Source: a virus
Taxonomy: Duplodnaviria; Heunggongvirae; Uroviricota; Caudoviricetes
DNA length: 45,384 nucleotides
Virus record (IMG/VR): IMGVR_UViG_2537561934_000012
Coordinates: 1 to 45,384 of that record
Reading direction: 5' to 3' (one strand)
Below are positions 1,422 to 7,193 of this stretch, piece after piece. Position numbers and translations under genes: made by a program. The notes below the pieces were generated by a model. That model searched no databases. It had not been told where the DNA came from and saw nothing but the letters and a program-made list of their open reading frames with translations. The first letter of the stretch is position 1, and every line of letters begins with the position of its first letter.

Positions 1422-3905
1422 TTAAAAATCAGCCTGACTCGGGATCAGTTTTTGTATCGTAGCTGTAACGTATTTTGCCTGGTGACGGGCGTCATCCAGC
1501 GCATTGTGGCGCACGCCTTCGAATGGAATAACGGTTCTGGCATCAAAGTCGATTGTTTTTCCCAGCTCAACGATTGTGCGTACATCGCGATCGTTGTAGT
1601 AGCGCCACGGGCAGGGGATGTCCAGGCGTTCGTATGAGGTGCGCAAAATTGCGTTATCGAAAGTTGCACCATTACCCCATACCTGAACTAATTTTTCATC
1701 TGAGTATTCGTTGATGAACTCCCGAAACCGCGAAAGGGCATCCTTCAGTTTTACCTGGTCTGTTAAAATGGCAGCTCTGGCTTCACTGGACTGCTTCAGC
1801 CACCATTCGATGGTTCCACCGTCAGGAACAGCCCCTGTATTCATTGCGTCAGTCAGACTGATAACGATATAAAATACTGGCCCGATTTCCCCTGTTTGTG
1901 GGTCGAAGAAAACCGCACCAATAACCACGATGGGCGCATTGGTGTTGGTTCCCATTGTTTCAAGGTCGATCATCAGGTGGTACCACACTCTGCTGGTGGA
2001 TGTGATAACGTGATGACCGTTCACCGCAATTAAGGGATCTGCCGTCTCGCCAGTTTCATTATCGCTGGCGTGGTCCTGAGCGCTGCCAGCATTCTCCTTT
2101 TGTGGATGTTCAGCGCCTTCCATTTCCTCCGGATCATTTTCCTGAACTTCAACCTGATTCTCTTCATCGAATGTTTCCTGGTATGTTGCGTCGCCCATCA
2201 CCGCACTACAATCAGGGCAGTTGCCGCCACCGATCTGACCGCAGGCTGTGCAGACTTTTTCCGCTTCCTGTTGCGCTACCGGTTCGGATTGTTTCGTTTC
2301 TGGCTCGTTTTGTAACGCATTTTGGCTGTTTTGTTCCGCTTTCTGGTTGTTCTGTTCCGTTTCTTGCTGGTTCTGGTTCACAGAATCGCGGGTTTCAATC
2401 CCCTTCACCCATTTCGGATCATTCGGGTCGCTAATCCCTGCAACAAATTCTCCGCGAGAGGCAGCAAGCAGTTCATTAGCGTCAGGCTGGCTGATATTGG
2501 CTGCCTGCATAATTTTGTTTACTTCGTCAGCGGTAACTTTTACCGGCTCTGGTTGTGCGGTCGTGTCAGATGCACCAGTATTTTGTTGTGAGCCTGAGTA
2601 TGTACCGTTTTTGCGGGCAAAATATTCTTCTTTCGTGATTTCAGTAGCCCCTGCAGCCAGCGCCTTATTCAGACCAGAAAGTTTGTTTGCACGACCATAT
2701 TTTTCGCCATCCTTATCGGTGAAAAGGAAGTAGAACGGCCCCTCACGCTCTACAGATGGTTCAGTTTCCAGCGTGCTTTCATTTTTTTGGGTATCAGATA
2801 CTTCAGTTTCCACTGCATCAGTTTGTGCTGCTGACGGCTGGAGAATATCAGCAGTGTTCTGGTCTGTTTCTTCATCCTCAAACACGCCCTTTGTCGCCAG
2901 GTATTCAGTGATGTATTTGTTCAGTGCTACGGGATCTTTGTGAATGTCGATCGGACGCTCACGGACAAGGCCAAAAATAGTCTGACGGTCGTAGCGAACG
3001 GCATCGGGTTGTTTGCGCATTGATGCGGAAATGCGCTTCCAGTCTTCGCGATCTTTGTCGATAACTTCATTTTTTGCCCAGCGATGGATGCTGCCGTCAA
3101 TGTTTCCGGCATCAATATCACCAGGCCAGAGATAGTAGGCCAGCTCCCTGTCCAGGGTTTTCCATGTCTGCTTGTATTCACGACGAATGGCGGCAGTGAC
3201 AGGAGGGATTTTTTCTGCTGGGTTTTCAGTGTCCTGCCGGTTAACTTTGGCGCGGGCGAGATCAACAACAGAAGTATATGCATCACCTTCTTTGCGCTCC
3301 TTTTCCTGGCGTTTTTTACGGTCGAGAAAATATGCCTGAACGTCGGGCCATTTGGCGGTTGGTTTTAAATCACGTCTGGCATCGTTGATGTATTCAATCT
3401 GACGTTCCGGATACATGGCGTTAATTTCTTTAGTCCGGATAATTGCCTCTGCGAGGTGTCCGTCAAAGGTCATCATGTCGTCATCGCCAAGAAGCCCGCT
3501 TGCGTTGATGACCATATCCACGGTGATGTTTTCATGTGTGCCAAACTTAACGAGGACAGCAGCCTGCTTGTCGTCAGATAACTGATTAAAGTTAACAATT
3601 TCTGTATTCGGCTCAGGTTCGACCGGGACAAAGGAAGCGGATTCCTCATCCCAGAGGTTTTCCTGCATATAATCAGTATCCCAGGAATCAAGGGCAGGGC
3701 GGGCCATGCCGGGTTTATCCTCGCAGACAAGAAATTTATAAGCGCAGTCCTGAGCTGCCGGATATTGTTCCAGGAATTGCCAGGTAAATTTGGCACGGGC
3801 GCGGCGTTCGTCGCCAGCTTCAATGGCAGTGGCAACAGCAACTGCACCTTCTTCCTTTATTGCCTGTTCGTCCGGAATGGCGGCGCAAATAAAGACTTTA
3901 CTCAT
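1422..3905 (-). CDS. RecE-like (exonuclease VIII family) protein with C-terminal DnaQ-like 3'-5' exonuclease domain
   Basis: 827-aa ORF. Central segment LLAASRGEFVAGISDPNDPKWVKGIETRD closely matches the remembered Rac RecE middle region. C-terminal about 190 aa (HLMIDLETMGT...GNGATFDNAIL...HNALDDARHQAKY) reads as a DEDDh-type exonuclease fold. Confidence 0.65.
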   Translation of the reverse strand: MSKVFICAAIPDEQAIKEEGAVAVATAIEAGDERRARAKFTWQFLEQYPAAQDCAYKFLVCEDKPGMARPALDSWDTDYMQENLWDEESASFVPVEPEPNTEIVNFNQLSDDKQAAVLVKFGTHENITVDMVINASGLLGDDDMMTFDGHLAEAIIRTKEINAMYPERQIEYINDARRDLKPTAKWPDVQAYFLDRKKRQEKERKEGDAYTSVVDLARAKVNRQDTENPAEKIPPVTAAIRREYKQTWKTLDRELAYYLWPGDIDAGNIDGSIHRWAKNEVIDKDREDWKRISASMRKQPDAVRYDRQTIFGLVRERPIDIHKDPVALNKYITEYLATKGVFEDEETDQNTADILQPSAAQTDAVETEVSDTQKNESTLETEPSVEREGPFYFLFTDKDGEKYGRANKLSGLNKALAAGATEITKEEYFARKNGTYSGSQQNTGASDTTAQPEPVKVTADEVNKIMQAANISQPDANELLAASRGEFVAGISDPNDPKWVKGIETRDSVNQNQQETEQNNQKAEQNSQNALQNEPETKQSEPVAQQEAEKVCTACGQIGGGNCPDCSAVMGDATYQETFDEENQVEVQENDPEEMEGAEHPQKENAGSAQDHASDNETGETADPLIAVNGHHVITSTSRVWYHLMIDLETMGTNTNAPIVVIGAVFFDPQTGEIGPVFYIVISLTDAMNTGAVPDGGTIEWWLKQSSEARAAILTDQVKLKDALSRFREFINEYSDEKLVQVWGNGATFDNAILRTSYERLDIPCPWRYYNDRDVRTIVELGKTIDFDARTVIPFEGVRHNALDDARHQAKYVTATIQKLIPSQADF

Positions 3906-3985
3906 TTTGTTTTAACCTCATTACAGATTTAAGGGTGAACAAATCCCTGCCATTGCTGGCATATAAAAATGAAACCGGATATTAA

Positions 3986-4189
3986 TTACGGTGCTGTATT
4001 AAATCCTGCCGGGATTTCGGTATTATCCATGCGAATAACTTTCTCGACCGGATAACAGTTACCAGGAATTTTCTGTTCTGCTGCGGCAGCCATACATTCT
4101 TTCATTGAACCATATATACCAGTAACCACATCAACAGGTTCGCCAGTATTGAGAAAAACAGTCAGAGTGAGGGCAACAGCAGTATTCAT
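3986..4189 (-). CDS. Hypothetical early-left-operon protein
   Basis: Likely start at internal ATG (MNTAVALTL...), which overlaps the stop of the upstream gene in an ATGA arrangement suggesting translational coupling. The ORF track extends it to 4243. Confidence 0.4.
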   Translation of the reverse strand: MNTAVALTLTVFLNTGEPVDVVTGIYGSMKECMAAAAEQKIPGNCYPVEKVIRMDNTEIPAGFNTAP

Positions 4190-4374
4190 TGCCAGTATCC
4201 TTTTTGCATCAGACGTAAACGGGCCAGCATTGAAACAATGCAAATTTGATTTAATAACTCCCGTTCGTGTTTTCTCTTATTAATGGCATCTTCAGTAAAT
4301 ACAGGGTTACTGATTCTGACTCCAATTTCAAAACAACCTTCAGACGTATTAACGTTTGGTAATAACGTTTCCAT
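4186..4374 (-). CDS. Hypothetical early-left-operon protein
   Basis: Likely start METLLPNV... preceded by a GAGGA Shine-Dalgarno on the minus strand. The ORF track extends it to 4470. Confidence 0.4.
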   Translation of the reverse strand: METLLPNVNTSEGCFEIGVRISNPVFTEDAINKRKHERELLNQICIVSMLARLRLMQKGYWQ

Positions 4375-4939
4375 TATCGCGTCCTCAACAATGAACTTTG
4401 TGATGCGGTGCCTGGTGCCTCCAGGTGACGTTAACCAGTTAACAATTAACGCCGGATACAGAGAACCCACCCATAAGAACCAATACGGAAGTCAACTGGC
4501 CTTTTTAACTGTTCCGCGTGCGCTGAGCCGCATTCACCGCATCACAAAATTCACTTTAAAAAAGGGCGGACATCAGCCAGCAATGAAAACTGATGCCGCC
4601 AAAAGGTAATCAACATGGGTTGTTGCAGCGGGGTTGTCACTCAGGCGTATGGTCAACCTGACAACCCGGTGTTATCTCGAGGAAAGGATAGCCTCGCCAT
4701 ACTTACCGCCGCGCCATTTCGCGGGTTGCCACAACCGGAAGCGCACGGTCGAATTAAATTTAACGACACCGTACAGTGAGACGAACTTCGCCGTGCGCTT
4801 TCGTGTTGTGCCCTGACTTTTCAGGGATATATCCTTTCAGTAAACTGTCAGTGCCGGATGCTCACCCGTGTCCGGCGCACGCACTCCACCTGACCCGTGG
4901 AGAACTCCTTAATTACCAACCATCAGGAGGGTGAAATTT

Positions 4940-5131
4940 ATGACACAAGAAGAAAAAGTAATGTTTCTTATGCGCCTGGCTGTGGAAACCTTTAACGCCC
5001 ATTGCCAGGTGTCCATTTCACCATCTCACGCCATTTCTCTTGCTACCGAGCAAATGGGGGAGATTGACGTCATTTACGATAAATTTGAAGCATTCCTGGA
5101 TAAGAAGCTTATGGCAGAGAAGCGTCAATAA
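4940..5131 (+). CDS. Hypothetical small protein (63 aa) on opposite strand to the early-left operon
   Basis: ATG at 4940 preceded by AGGAGG at 9-nt spacing (track start 4931 is an in-frame GTG). Convergent with and overlapping the 3' end of the 5109..5714 gene. Confidence 0.45.
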   Translation: MTQEEKVMFLMRLAVETFNAHCQVSISPSHAISLATEQMGEIDVIYDKFEAFLDKKLMAEKRQ

Positions 5132-5714
5132 TCCTCATTACCCATCGTAAATATACAGGAGTGGGCTTGACGTTGTGTTTTTCAAGCTCGCTCTTCATTA
5201 CTTCCTGCAACTTTGAGCTGATAATAAACAAATCAGGTTTATCGTTATTATTTTTATCAGCATCGTCTTTTTTTGTTTTCGACTCTTGTGGTGAATGTTC
5301 GAAAGTAACTTGCAGGGTATTATTTTTAGCGTCCGCAGAGCCTAAAGTATGTGCATATGGATGTGCTATTGTGCGCCCTCGCAGATTTGCATCATTTTCT
5401 AAATTCACTGAACGAAACAGGGCATCAACAAGGCTCTGTACAATGCAAAGGCAATCGAAGACTGTCGCTGTTTCTGTTTTGATTGATGAAAGAACATGGC
5501 CATTCAGGCAAACAGAAATTACCCGTTCATTAACATCGCTTTCCCGCTTTTGATTATCAGAACCATATAGCCCGGTAAACGCATCGCGCACATTACGAAC
5601 CATATTATCGATGGTTTCTTTTTTTGCGGATCCCGGTTTAATTTCCACCAGGCTATCGCTAAGTGTCGTTGCAGCAATTGTCTGGATTTCTTTTGGTAAA
5701 TCTTTAAATTCCAT
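5109..5714 (-). CDS. Hypothetical protein (201 aa), AT-rich accessory gene in early-left region
   Basis: Long ORF in visibly AT-rich DNA. No transmembrane segment or recognisable motif. C-terminal acidic/Lys/Asn-rich stretch. Confidence 0.5.
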   Translation of the reverse strand: MEFKDLPKEIQTIAATTLSDSLVEIKPGSAKKETIDNMVRNVRDAFTGLYGSDNQKRESDVNERVISVCLNGHVLSSIKTETATVFDCLCIVQSLVDALFRSVNLENDANLRGRTIAHPYAHTLGSADAKNNTLQVTFEHSPQESKTKKDDADKNNNDKPDLFIISSKLQEVMKSELEKHNVKPTPVYLRWVMRIIDASLP

Positions 5715-5736
5715 TATTAGCCTCGTTGGTCAGCTA

Positions 5737-5955
5737 TTAACGTGGGTATGTAACCATTCTGGCAATGCTTAATGCCGCTGCTTTTTCCAGCCTGGTGATA
5801 TCCTGCTCCAGAGCGGACAGATTTTCAGCCTGCTTAGCCCTGGCTTCATTGGCCCATTTCAGGTCCTGCGCTGCCATAATTTTCTGGCGCATCCACTCAT
5901 AAAGCTCATCATCGGTATAGTCTGGCGCGATGATGACGGGTTCTCGTTTCTGCAT
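5737..5955 (-). CDS. Hypothetical small protein (72 aa), coiled-coil-like
   Basis: ORF with GAGG Shine-Dalgarno upstream on the minus strand, in the early-left operon. Confidence 0.45.
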   Translation of the reverse strand: MQKREPVIIAPDYTDDELYEWMRQKIMAAQDLKWANEARAKQAENLSALEQDITRLEKAAALSIARMVTYPR

Positions 5956-5985
5956 ACTGAATTCCTCGCGGTGATGTTTCGCTTA

Positions 5986-6114
5986 TCAGCCGTTATATTT
6001 TGCCGAACTGGAAAGCGCCTGTTTAAACTCACTGAAGCTGAGAGCTTCTTCGCCTTCGGCAAGGCCTTCGAAGTATTCTTCGTAAGCCTTTTCCATGATT
6101 GCGTCGAAATCCAT
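5986..6114 (-). CDS. Hypothetical small protein (42 aa), below ORF-track threshold
   Basis: ATG preceded by a GGTGAG Shine-Dalgarno-like sequence on the minus strand. Tightly packed between the flanking genes. Acidic product MDFDAIMEKAYEEYFEGLAEGEEALSFSEFKQALSSSAKYNG. Confidence 0.3.
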   Translation of the reverse strand: MDFDAIMEKAYEEYFEGLAEGEEALSFSEFKQALSSSAKYNG

Positions 6115-6115
6115 A

Positions 6116-6271
6116 TCACTCACCTGAGTTTCTTTCCAGCCAGCGACGAGCGCCAGTTTCGGTTTTAAACGTTTTGCTTTTGGTATACGTCATCGCGGTG
6201 AATGTGCCGTCCTGGTTGGGAAACACGCCGTATACCAGAGATTCGTTGTTGCCAAGATCGATAGTATCCAT
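6116..6271 (-). CDS. Small early-left protein (51 aa), Rac YdaF-like
   Basis: Likely start MDTIDLGNNESL... with a GAGG Shine-Dalgarno upstream. Resembles the remembered 51-aa Rac YdaF. The track ORF extends to 6349. Confidence 0.45.
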   Translation of the reverse strand: MDTIDLGNNESLVYGVFPNQDGTFTAMTYTKSKTFKTETGARRWLERNSGE

Positions 6272-6439
6272 GCTGACCTCATTTCCCCTTAACGCCGGGG
6301 TAGCGGAACAAAAACCTGCTGCATAGTTAAAGTTGAACCCTGCCGTCATGTTCTTACGCCTCGGGCTGGCTACTTACCCCCTGACCACTGCCTGGTAACT
6401 CGAAGTATTGCCCTGCGTTCTGTGGGGTGGGGTGGGTTG

Positions 6440-6500
6440 GTATGCAATAAATCTAAAAGTATTTAGTTTTATAGTCAAGGGGAATCTAAATTAATTTAAA
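6440..6500 (-). promoter_or_regulatory. PL-like leftward promoter with OL-like operator half-sites
   Basis: On the minus strand: TTGACT (plus-strand 6473-6478), 17-nt spacer, TAGATT (plus-strand 6450-6455). Repeated AATCTAAA half-site motif also found in the OR region. Confidence 0.4.
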
Positions 6501-6524
6501 AAAAAGGTCGGTATAACCGACCTT
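6498..6524 (-). terminator. Rho-independent terminator downstream of the repressor gene
   Basis: On the minus strand: GGTCGG stem, 5-nt loop, CCGACC, followed by a run of 8 T. Confidence 0.55.
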
Positions 6525-6545
6525 AAGTTCAAGGACATGGCAGTG

Positions 6546-7193
6546 TTATAGGTTGAACTGTACACCTTTTGCTACGGCAACAATTTTACACTCTGGCGTA
6601 AGCAAGGATGATTGATAGCGCGGATTGAGAGGGCTTAAATACACAAGTTTTCCATCAATAACTAATTTTTTTATAGTCATAGACGGTTCATTTGTAAGTG
6701 GATCTGGAACTATTACAGCGACAATACTGCCATTTTTATAACTTTCTCCTGGTCTTAGGATCACAGTGGCACCAACCGGGATACTCGGCGACCCTGAGGG
6801 GTTATGCATAGTGTCATCAGGCATTGAAACGGCAAAATCACCTTCCACTACATCAAAGAATGTGGTGATCCTATCGACATTTCCCATTGTTTTCTCTCCT
6901 TCTAAGATTAGGAAAGAAATCGCGTCACCCCACGAAAAGTAGGGGATCTTGGTGCCTGGATTGCTCTGCACAAAAGATAGTTCAGGAGACGATACTCCAT
7001 ACAGGAGATAGGACTCAGTAGTTCCTAATGCTTGAGCTAACTTACTTAGAGCTTTGCTGCCGGGTTCGTTTAGATCTTTCTCCCAGTACCCTATAGTAAC
7101 CCCAGTCACGCCTGAAAGCTTACCCAGTTCTACTTGGGTGAGTCCCTTATCTTTTCTGAGTTTCTTAAGCCTGATGCCAAGGCTTTCCATCAT
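6546..7193 (-). CDS. cI: CI-type phage repressor (HTH plus LexA/S24-like autocleavage domain)
   Basis: 215 aa. N-terminal HTH (LKKLRKDKGLTQVELGKLSGVTGVTIGYWEKD) and C-terminal S24-peptidase-like region. Divergent from the cro-like gene across an operator region. Confidence 0.85.
   Translation of the reverse strand: MMESLGIRLKKLRKDKGLTQVELGKLSGVTGVTIGYWEKDLNEPGSKALSKLAQALGTTESYLLYGVSSPELSFVQSNPGTKIPYFSWGDAISFLILEGEKTMGNVDRITTFFDVVEGDFAVSMPDDTMHNPSGSPSIPVGATVILRPGESYKNGSIVAVIVPDPLTNEPSMTIKKLVIDGKLVYLSPLNPRYQSSLLTPECKIVAVAKGVQFNL

Follow-up and report, generated by a model that had tools for sequence, protein, structure and literature searches.

Positions 4610-5714 of a 45,384-nt viral sequence (IMG/VR record IMGVR_UViG_2537561934_000012, Caudoviricetes; the whole stretch is called the window here) had been singled out, from the letters alone, as one early-left accessory unit consisting of a structured 320-bp non-coding region, a 63-aa plus-strand gene and a convergent AT-rich 201-aa gene. 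We assign the window to a lambdoid phage or prophage of E. coli and find that these features do not make up one unit. In our reading, which we hold at a probability of roughly 0.6, the interval is a composite of two elements. The structured region is the known minus-strand untranslated RNA of a dicF-bearing prophage operon. The two genes lie on a swappable 795-bp cassette and contain a linked convergent pair: the 63-aa gene, which we call A, and the C-terminal motif of the 201-aa protein, which we call B. Protein A would be the partner or inhibitor of B, and the two would be expressed reciprocally.

Comparison with the Qin prophage of strain K-12 sets the border between these two elements. In blastn alignments, window 4921-3901 corresponds to Qin 2563-3583 (L003) at 84% identity, continuing through dicB, and window 6309-5717 corresponds to Qin 1971-2562 at 96% identity. 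Because the two Qin blocks are contiguous, window 4616-4921 is the counterpart of the 340-nt spacer between ydfC and dicF in K-12. The 795 bp between the two window blocks (4922-5716, with genes on both strands) have no counterpart in Qin, the breakpoints being window 5717 = L003 2562 and window 4921 = L003 2563. This cassette sits between ydfC and the untranslated region. Its left end falls 3 nt before the Shine-Dalgarno sequence of gene A and its right end 2 nt past the start codon of the 201-aa gene, so defined it contains gene A on the plus strand and the 201-aa gene on the minus strand.

The two elements also differ in how widely they are distributed. The full-length cassette is present in 8 of 5,426 complete E. 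coli genomes, those of strains B7A and TD225-C4 among them, and a 1,121-bp query containing the untranslated region matched 4,310 of 5,426. The half of the cassette that holds A and B was absent from all 50,697 phage records searched. The G+C content (GC) of the cassette is 0.365-0.44, lower than that of its flanks, the untranslated region and ydfC, at 0.48-0.56; by segment, GC is 0.54-0.56 over 4600-4899 and 0.365-0.38 over 5100-5399. The cassette is moreover present or absent between otherwise collinear phages, being missing in Qin and replaced by other cassettes elsewhere. Both its composition and this polymorphism are those of a moron, and as an accessory unit of a lambdoid phage the cassette is of a familiar kind. 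The idea of an accessory unit thus holds for the two genes and fails for the 320-bp region, which K-12 possesses without the cassette.

The genes of the cassette converge as originally described. Gene A (4940-5131, plus strand) encodes an acidic protein, starts with ATG and is preceded at a 9-nt spacing by the Shine-Dalgarno sequence AGGAGG (4925-4930), on the strand antisense to the early-left operon. Its 3' end overlaps that of the 201-aa open reading frame (ORF; 5109-5714, minus strand), which is AT-rich, by 23 bp (5109-5131). Upon comparing homologues, we found 28 distinct A/B pairs in addition to those of the phages SfII and EPP-1, all arranged tail-to-tail. The overlap measures 12-36 bp in 27 of the 28 pairs (A is truncated in the 28th), and the gene that A faces has the B motif at its end in 27 of the 28, only a remnant being left in L134. 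No intact A lacking at least a B remnant occurred among the 28 distinct pairs plus SfII and EPP-1. The pair is spread over Escherichia, Shigella phage SfII, Serratia, Buttiauxella (where B is a remnant), Edwardsiella phage EPP-1 and metagenomic contigs, and in several genera the two remain paired although protein identity has dropped to 44-56%.

What B is attached to changes from one pair to the next. B can be a protein of its own (57-64 aa) or follow any of at least four N-terminal contexts that are unrelated to one another. It stands alone in Serratia (57 aa) and in metagenomic contigs (57-64 aa); the smallest pairs, those of L008 and L133, combine an A of 63 aa with a B of 57 aa. In Rac-like E. 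coli prophages it follows a different N-terminus in proteins of 118-119 aa, in phage EPP-1 it is part of a 121-aa protein, and other partners are 158, 171 and 195 aa long. In phage SfII (L203, NC_021857; ~3660-3870, minus strand) it is carried by an unannotated 68-aa ORF (MTARRPREEK...ISSELLGVLKSELTAHGIEPTDENLSWVLSIIQQSLKPSLSKLFIE) that overlaps the end of SfII_36, an A homologue. In L130 (3151-3543, minus strand) a YdfC-like N-terminus (MIKQEPKIIAGHFSNEELLGWM...) is joined to B in a 130-aa protein; ydfC-type and B-type modules can therefore fuse. The genes flanking the pairs vary as well, from ydfC/dicF to kilR/N, cI/rdgC and, in SfII, int-xis. Across the sequences compared here, we show that A and B form a linked, overlapping pair whatever B is fused to.

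Judged by substitutions among its homologues, gene A is a selected protein-coding gene under purifying selection. Its product matches phrog_2605 (E 2.4e-22), and the homologues are 44-92% identical to it. Down to ~45% identity they retain the motifs EEKVMFLMRLAV and IY..FE.FLD.KL, and the helix-forming residues are conserved. In diverged copies (all pairs below 90% amino-acid identity) the proportion of nonsynonymous differences (pN) is 0.17-0.39, against a proportion of synonymous differences (pS) of 0.50-0.94, with synonymous sites near saturation; where the synonymous rate dS was calculable, the ratio of nonsynonymous to synonymous rates, dN/dS, was 0.17-0.41. AlphaFold2 predicts that protein A is a helical hairpin, with helices at residues 3-23 and 28-62 and a predicted local distance difference test (pLDDT) of 75.8. 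This model found no match in the PDB or in a viral structure library with Foldseek. An exhaustive profile search with the A alignment recovered just 18 cluster representatives in 1.84 billion proteins, with no link to a larger family, and a search of plasmids, with one unannotated Salmonella record as its only match, gave no hint of a toxin-antitoxin context there. Gene A of the window type and that of the Rac type share 91% identity over their first 56 nt (4940-4995, plus strand), the remainder being too diverged for blastn. This conserved start may mark a point of recombination within the gene or result from extra constraint.

The 201-aa protein can be divided into four parts on the basis of PHROG matches, comparison with phage Evi and the list of homologues. 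Residues 1-55 (5550-5714, minus strand, as are the other parts) form an N-terminal domain, MEFKDLPKEIQ...RNVRDAFTGLY, that was delimited by homologue comparison and is carried by many different C-terminal parts. It is followed by a middle domain, M (residues ~56-128, 5331-5549), common to the 135-aa proteins of phrog_1363 such as that of phage Evi, and by a low-complexity linker rich in Lys, Asp and Asn (residues ~129-159, 5238-5330), the most AT-rich stretch of the interval. The B motif, DLFIISSKLQEVMKSELEKHNVKPTPVYLRWVMRIIDASLP, makes up residues ~160-201 (5112-5237) and hits phrog_2982 and phrog_15476. The match to phrog_1363 (E 6.3e-44) covers residues 1-128 only, that is, the N-terminal and M domains (N+M), and a mosaic junction with phage Evi lies at 5331/5332. 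In the homologue P0029 the N-terminal domain is joined straight to the linker and B, with M missing. By these matches, the protein is a domain mosaic, a fusion that no single PHROG family represents. A word-indexed homology search with the B region alone gave one close match only and was uninformative. We also considered a ribbon-helix-helix fold for B, whose sequence pattern suggested a hydrophobic strand followed by two helices, and found no support for it: no sequence match was found in Pfam or the PDB, and hhalign against manually entered Arc and CopG sequences gave a probability of ~1%.

The structured region belongs with the early-left operon on the minus strand. Aligned with K-12, phage Evi and strain Br_190, positions 4616-4921 are highly conserved, including both inverted repeats of the original prediction, which we located, like all the other features it described, at or within a few bases of where it had placed them. 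The segment lies upstream of DicF and forms the 3' untranslated region of ydfC in K-12 and of the 201-aa gene in the window. In K-12, it is a documented part of the minus-strand transcript that bears DicF (PMC5069750, PMC9438474). By homology and gene order, then, 4616-4921 is an element already known: on the minus strand, the structured and conserved untranslated part of the prophage operon ydfABC-dicF-dicB. The non-coding status assigned to it stands: its homologue in K-12, the spacer between ydfC and dicF, is non-coding, and no ORF in 4616-4939 belongs to a convincing protein family. Those of 54, 60 and 52 aa yielded none, a 23-residue PHROG match at E 8e-5 being judged spurious. An Rfam scan of 3800-6600 at E values up to 1 returned only the DicF match, an STnc100-like match and a chance match to sroD, none of them inside 4616-4939.

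The left border of the non-coding region, given as 4610, falls inside a feature that had been overlooked, a DicF-like small RNA (sRNA) at 4564-4615 on the minus strand, which we identified by Rfam RF00039 and by synteny with K-12 dicF. The match spans model positions 1-52 of 52 with 39.4 bits (E 1.9e-6) and does not reach the gathering score of 48. The four-way alignment shows the stem of the terminator hairpin and the U-run that follows it to be intact, and the 5' part and the loop to be changed relative to K-12 DicF. The copy is placed as in the operon, between ydfC and dicB on one strand with a long untranslated spacer before it. The differing 5' part is the one that in K-12 DicF pairs with the xylR and pykA targets, and on sequence comparison the target range of the window copy may differ from that of K-12. 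The copy resembles the DicF-like hairpin of Rac-type prophages (L004; the KilS region of K-12 Rac), and window 4390-4601 aligns with kilR-KilS of K-12 Rac at 80% identity. Passages of PMC5069750 and PMC9438474 that cite Faubladier et al. 1990 say that RNase E makes the 5' end of K-12 DicF and that its 3' end arises through RNase III or intrinsic termination; by analogy, the window RNA would be processed in the same way.

Several stems can be drawn in the untranslated region. A hairpin formed by GGGTTGTCA and TGACAACCC (4631-4639/4659-4667, minus strand) has arms of 9 nt with 100% complementarity and is nearly invariant among homologous spacers. An inverted-repeat search also returned GCCGGA/TCCGGC (4853-4858/4871-4876, minus strand), the adjacent CTCCAC/GTGGAG (4884-4889/4897-4902, minus strand) and CCCTGA/TCAGGG (4811-4816/4821-4826). 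The best-supported stem in 102 distinct spacer sequences from viral contigs is a long-range helix of ~22 bp (arms 4730-4753 and 4787-4810, minus strand), which was found in minimum-free-energy folds, by RNAalifold and as the inverted repeats I1 and I6. Its variants are mostly C-to-U or A-to-G changes in the 5' arm of the minus-strand RNA that keep G-U pairs; a U-G pair at 4732/4808, for example, occurs in 79 of the 102 sequences. Read on the plus strand, the same one-sided changes are A-C mismatches. Over the stems common to the folds of both strands, pairing was possible on the minus strand only in 421 cells and on the plus strand only in 208. This wobble-type variation favours the minus-strand RNA as the one that the stems fit better.

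Because one arm of the helix had served as the search pattern for the first set of 102 sequences, and was hence fixed in it, the collection was repeated with a different anchor. The second set contains a clean compensatory change from G-C to A-T in L135, together with variants that carry mismatches and two contigs that have lost the helix. In K-12 Rac, where remnants of the helix are present, an A-T pair has changed to G-C in a compensatory manner. Our reading of these alignments is that the structure is probably real and moderately constrained, that it belongs to the sense, minus-strand transcript and that it is not indispensable. The minus-strand hairpin CCCUGAAAAGUCAGGG (4811-4826), in which the GAAAAG segment is nearly invariant, resembles lambda boxB (GCCCUGAAAAAGGGC) plus three bases; there is no boxA-like sequence near it, and we do not claim a nut site.

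The position taken by the cassette is a hypervariable slot. We surveyed ~125 viral contigs that share the spacer, and the commonest state among those that could be classified is an empty slot, as in K-12. A filled slot holds one of a wide range of small plus-strand ORFs (48-106 aa), in several cases directly behind the junction CAGGAGGGTGAA; this junction, which lies at the Shine-Dalgarno sequence of A, also precedes several unrelated small ORFs in other prophages. When 81 filled loci were clustered, the plus-strand genes fell into 11 types, as did the C-terminal ends of the convergent minus-strand genes; the two sets matched almost one-to-one, and 9 of the 11 plus-gene types face a minus-strand partner with the shared N-terminal domain MEFKDLP...RNVRDAFTGLY. 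The slot proteins belong to PHROGs of unknown function or to none. An alternative occupant of 94 aa (in L105 and L071) matches the type V antitoxin GhoS marginally (PF11080, 21.2 bits against a cut-off of 21), and apart from this match, scanning the slot's other proteins against PADLOC and Pfam gave nothing. In K-12 Rac (L205 2406-3312) the order is kilR, the sRNA KilS and then, in the slot and on the opposite strand, sieB, which converges on ydaF with a 4-bp overlap; the placement of KilS between kilR and sieB is a RefSeq annotation. In Rac, then, the place of the A/B unit is filled by an exclusion gene, sieB. A literature search on KilS and sieB returned nothing relevant to the slot.

The geometry of the A/B pair suggests how it might work. 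Protein A would be a cognate binding partner or inhibitor of proteins that carry the B domain. Upon induction, the early-left promoter would drive the B-containing protein and suppress A by transcriptional collision and antisense pairing; in the repressed prophage, only A could be made. We infer such reciprocal expression because the two genes face each other and overlap, and from it we derive a putative unit composed of an effector and a cognate, oppositely timed partner. A plus-strand promoter scan upstream of A found no sigma-70-like promoter with at least 9 of 12 matches, although weak or activated promoters could escape this simple consensus search. With no match in the scan and only ~18 nt upstream of the ATG supplied by the cassette, any promoter of A must sit in the conserved untranslated region. 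By eye, we noticed one weak candidate there, TTTTCA-N17-TAAACT (4818-4846, plus strand; 8 of 12 matches), which is conserved in empty slots too. A transcript that started at this candidate would be antisense to the DicF precursor and may affect DicF maturation by pairing with it. The sole terminator-like site downstream of A on the plus strand is a hairpin with a T-run at 5760-5787, inside ydfC, and it is also present where the slot is empty.

Could the structured region instead serve gene A, as the unit first proposed would have it? The 320-bp region would then be a leader or regulatory RNA of A, providing its promoter, hairpins of its 5' untranslated region and an anti-Shine-Dalgarno sequence, in a toxin-antitoxin or exclusion module. 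Several observations are in line with this. Both strands fold more stably than shuffled sequences, the plus strand (4616-4940, z = -5.6) by a wider margin than the minus strand (4555-4940, z = -2.7); the cassette leaves no room for a promoter of its own, so that A would be transcribed from the conserved region, where the 8-of-12 candidate lies; CTCCT at 4906-4910 is complementary to AGGAG of the Shine-Dalgarno sequence; and a similar-looking CACCAC...GTGGT hairpin, recognised by eye, recurs in a comparable place ahead of the A genes of other genera and ahead of Rac sieB. Yet the region is equally conserved in K-12, which has no plus-strand gene in the slot, and in the empty slots that are the commonest state. 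It also runs into DicF on the minus strand and is documented in that transcript (PMC5069750, PMC9438474), its variation preserves G-U pairs of the minus strand that would be A-C mismatches on the plus strand, the promoter scan upstream of A was empty, and neither toxin-antitoxin nor defence homology was found. We therefore regard an integrated unit as improbable. Far less probable still is that the plus-strand ORF is no protein gene and that its transcript acts as an antisense RNA on the 3' end of the early-left gene, after the model of lambda OOP and cII. The conserved convergent overlap of 12-36 bp and the DNA identity of the first 56 nt of A between otherwise diverged types would fit such an RNA, and they are outweighed by the strong Shine-Dalgarno sequence and ATG, the conservation of the protein despite saturated synonymous sites (pS 0.5-0.9 against pN 0.17-0.39), the retention of helix-forming residues to ~45% identity and the confidence of AlphaFold2 in both helices.

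A different objection concerns the link between A and B. Lambdoid early regions are mosaics with junctions at gene boundaries, and A and the 201-aa gene could be two unrelated morons that overlap and co-occur through nothing but physical linkage and recombination at shared junctions. Many unrelated gene pairs are found in the slot, in phage Evi a different small gene stands opposite an N+M protein without the B motif, and any interaction between A and B is inferred from sequence. What speaks for a functional pair is that A and B stay together as their surroundings change: B has at least four N-terminal contexts or none, the flanking genes differ among ydfC/dicF, kilR/N, cI/rdgC and int-xis, the pairing holds at 44-56% identity over several genera, and none of the 28 pairs has an intact A without a B remnant. 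We consider independent cargo unlikely, if somewhat less so than an integrated unit.

Other points weigh against a composite with a cognate A/B pair. The linkage of A and B may be partly trivial, as adjacent genes are co-inherited anyway, and the example of phage Evi means that a convergent overlap in the slot does not always imply a cognate domain. Protein A has no family match in Pfam, NCBIfam, PADLOC or the PDB, and the B motif has none in Pfam, NCBIfam, PADLOC or PDB sequences. The structure model of the 201-aa protein (pLDDT 39.6) is unusable for a fold search, and with no Foldseek match for the A model either, physical binding between A and B is an extrapolation. The empty promoter scan and the ~18 nt of upstream sequence in the cassette count against expression of A in the manner proposed. 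The long helix is mismatched in several variants and deleted in L179 and L186, apparently between two copies of TTTCGCG in the case of L179; either some prophages, at least, can do without it or these copies are in decay. Finally, the lysogen Br_190, one of the 8 genomes with the full-length cassette, has both A and the 201-aa gene disrupted, so the cassette can decay in an established lysogen. In this closest genomic relative (L001 3328-4103, 96.6% identity), a frameshift cuts A to 42 aa and the 201-aa gene is annotated as a pseudogene.

Seen against this evidence, the original prediction fares unevenly. Its suggestion of an exclusion, anti-defence or toxin-antitoxin function has a fair precedent in sieB, which occupies the same slot in Rac, and finds no such family match for either protein. 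The homology and structure analyses it called for gave PHROG matches and a predicted helical hairpin for A, and returned neither a Pfam or defence family nor a usable model of the 201-aa protein. Signs of conserved RNA structure were seen in the long helix, with its wobble variation and two compensatory changes, alongside mismatches and the loss of the helix in two contigs. As to whether the two proteins are ordinary conserved early genes, both match PHROGs of unknown function (phrog_2605 and phrog_1363), and the cassette is rare.

Among known systems, the closest to the window is the dicBF operon (ydfABC-dicF-dicB-ydfD) of K-12 Qin. Gene order and strand are the same, the flanks of the cassette are 84-96% identical in DNA, and the 320-bp structured region is the untranslated region of the Qin operon (PMC5069750, PMC9438474). 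Qin differs in lacking the 795-bp cassette and in having the repressor DicA, whereas the window has a cI type with an S24-peptidase domain; the DicF of the window is changed in its 5' part and loop and lies below the Rfam threshold. The sieB slot of Rac shares the layout, with a division-inhibitor gene and an sRNA in the early-left region followed by a plus-strand gene that converges on a gene of the YdfA family. SieB, by contrast, is an annotated superinfection exclusion protein of 162 aa, and A is 63 aa long and predicted to be a soluble helical hairpin. The Pfam scan returned no family for A, which has genomic position alone in common with SieB. The Rac sieB cassette also leaves ~100 nt upstream of its gene, enough for a promoter of its own, as compared with ~18 nt in the A cassette.

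Polymorphic toxin-immunity loci, such as CdiA-CT/CdiI, Rhs and the colicins, combine a conserved N-terminal part with alternative C-terminal parts, each with a small adjacent gene. The slot likewise pairs types of small gene with types of C-terminus nearly one-to-one, a correspondence that could reflect linkage alone. It differs from these loci in that the partner is convergent and overlapping instead of co-directional and downstream and in that the proteins have 105-216 aa; no secretion or delivery, toxin or immunity domain was detected in the slot proteins. Convergent antisense control is familiar from temperate phages, for example lambda OOP against cII, P22 sar against ant and the face-to-face pR and pL of coliphage 186. 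The A/B units likewise face each other and overlap in an early control region, in a geometry that allows pairing and transcriptional interference. In their case, however, the antisense partner, A, encodes a conserved protein, and its putative promoter was recognised only by eye.

Toxin-antitoxin systems resemble the pair less. Type II systems are typically co-directional operons, whereas A and B converge with a 23-bp 3' overlap, and no Pfam, NCBIfam or PADLOC match links A, the 201-aa protein or B to them. Type I systems combine a small hydrophobic toxin with an antisense RNA; the overlap is present here, but A is acidic and amphipathic, B is mixed and neither is hydrophobic. The pair shows none of the testable features by which toxin-antitoxin, defence or DNA-binding families are defined. 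The PHROG families that do match significantly, phrog_2605 for A and phrog_1363 for N+M, are both annotated 'unknown function', and B falls in phrog_2982 and phrog_15476. Literature searches on protein motifs and gene names returned nothing. Thus, the A/B module, the exchange of cassettes at a shared junction and the near one-to-one pairing of antisense gene and C-terminus appear to be undescribed.

Around the interval, the minus-strand genes follow the order expected of such an operon. Leftward from the cI-type repressor with its S24-peptidase domain (6546-7193) come a YdfA-like gene with a DUF1391 Pfam domain (ORF 6116-6349), a YdfB-like gene (5986-6123), ydfC (5737-5955, assigned by synteny), the 201-aa ORF and the gene-free stretch of ~320 bp. 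These are followed by the DicF-like sRNA, an STnc100-like stretch between DicF and dicB (4397-4551; Rfam score 33.7 bits, E 5.7e-5, below the gathering score of 47), dicB (4186-4374; Pfam E 1.5e-38), a YdfD-like gene to its left with a DUF1482 Pfam domain and an 827-aa protein with an exonuclease domain (1422-3905), all on the minus strand. The 827-aa protein occupies the position of a recE/exo-type gene; its N-terminal part is long, acidic and of low complexity, and a C-terminal 3'-5' exonuclease domain is annotated in records related to it.

For the biology of these prophages, recognising the structured RNA as the region of the DicF precursor removes a false lead. It leaves an A/B module that has stayed intact over several enterobacterial genera as B, which is often unannotated, changed its fusion partners. 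It also leaves a hypervariable slot that adjoins DicF and DicB, regulators of medical and physiological relevance, and in which a common ribosome-binding junction and a common N-terminal domain unite at least 11 alternative cassettes. In some prophages, a protein gene lies antisense to the transcript that yields DicF, an arrangement that, like the module and the slot, seems not to have been described before. More speculatively, and in our estimation doubtful, the slot as a whole might be a polymorphic effector/partner locus of enterobacterial lambdoid prophages, in which the MEFKDLP... domain carries interchangeable C-terminal effectors, cognate small proteins are encoded antisense behind a common ribosome-binding site, and a convergent switch selects the partner in the lysogen and the effector on induction. 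A/B would then be one ancient and portable member of this locus, whose role could be inter-phage competition, exclusion or control of host takeover. Should the narrower view of A and B as cognate inhibitor and effector be wrong, the pair would be ordinary cargo of a lambdoid mosaic. If it is right, they would represent a new family of prophage-encoded conflict systems and would offer a genetic handle on how toxic early genes are silenced in lysogens.

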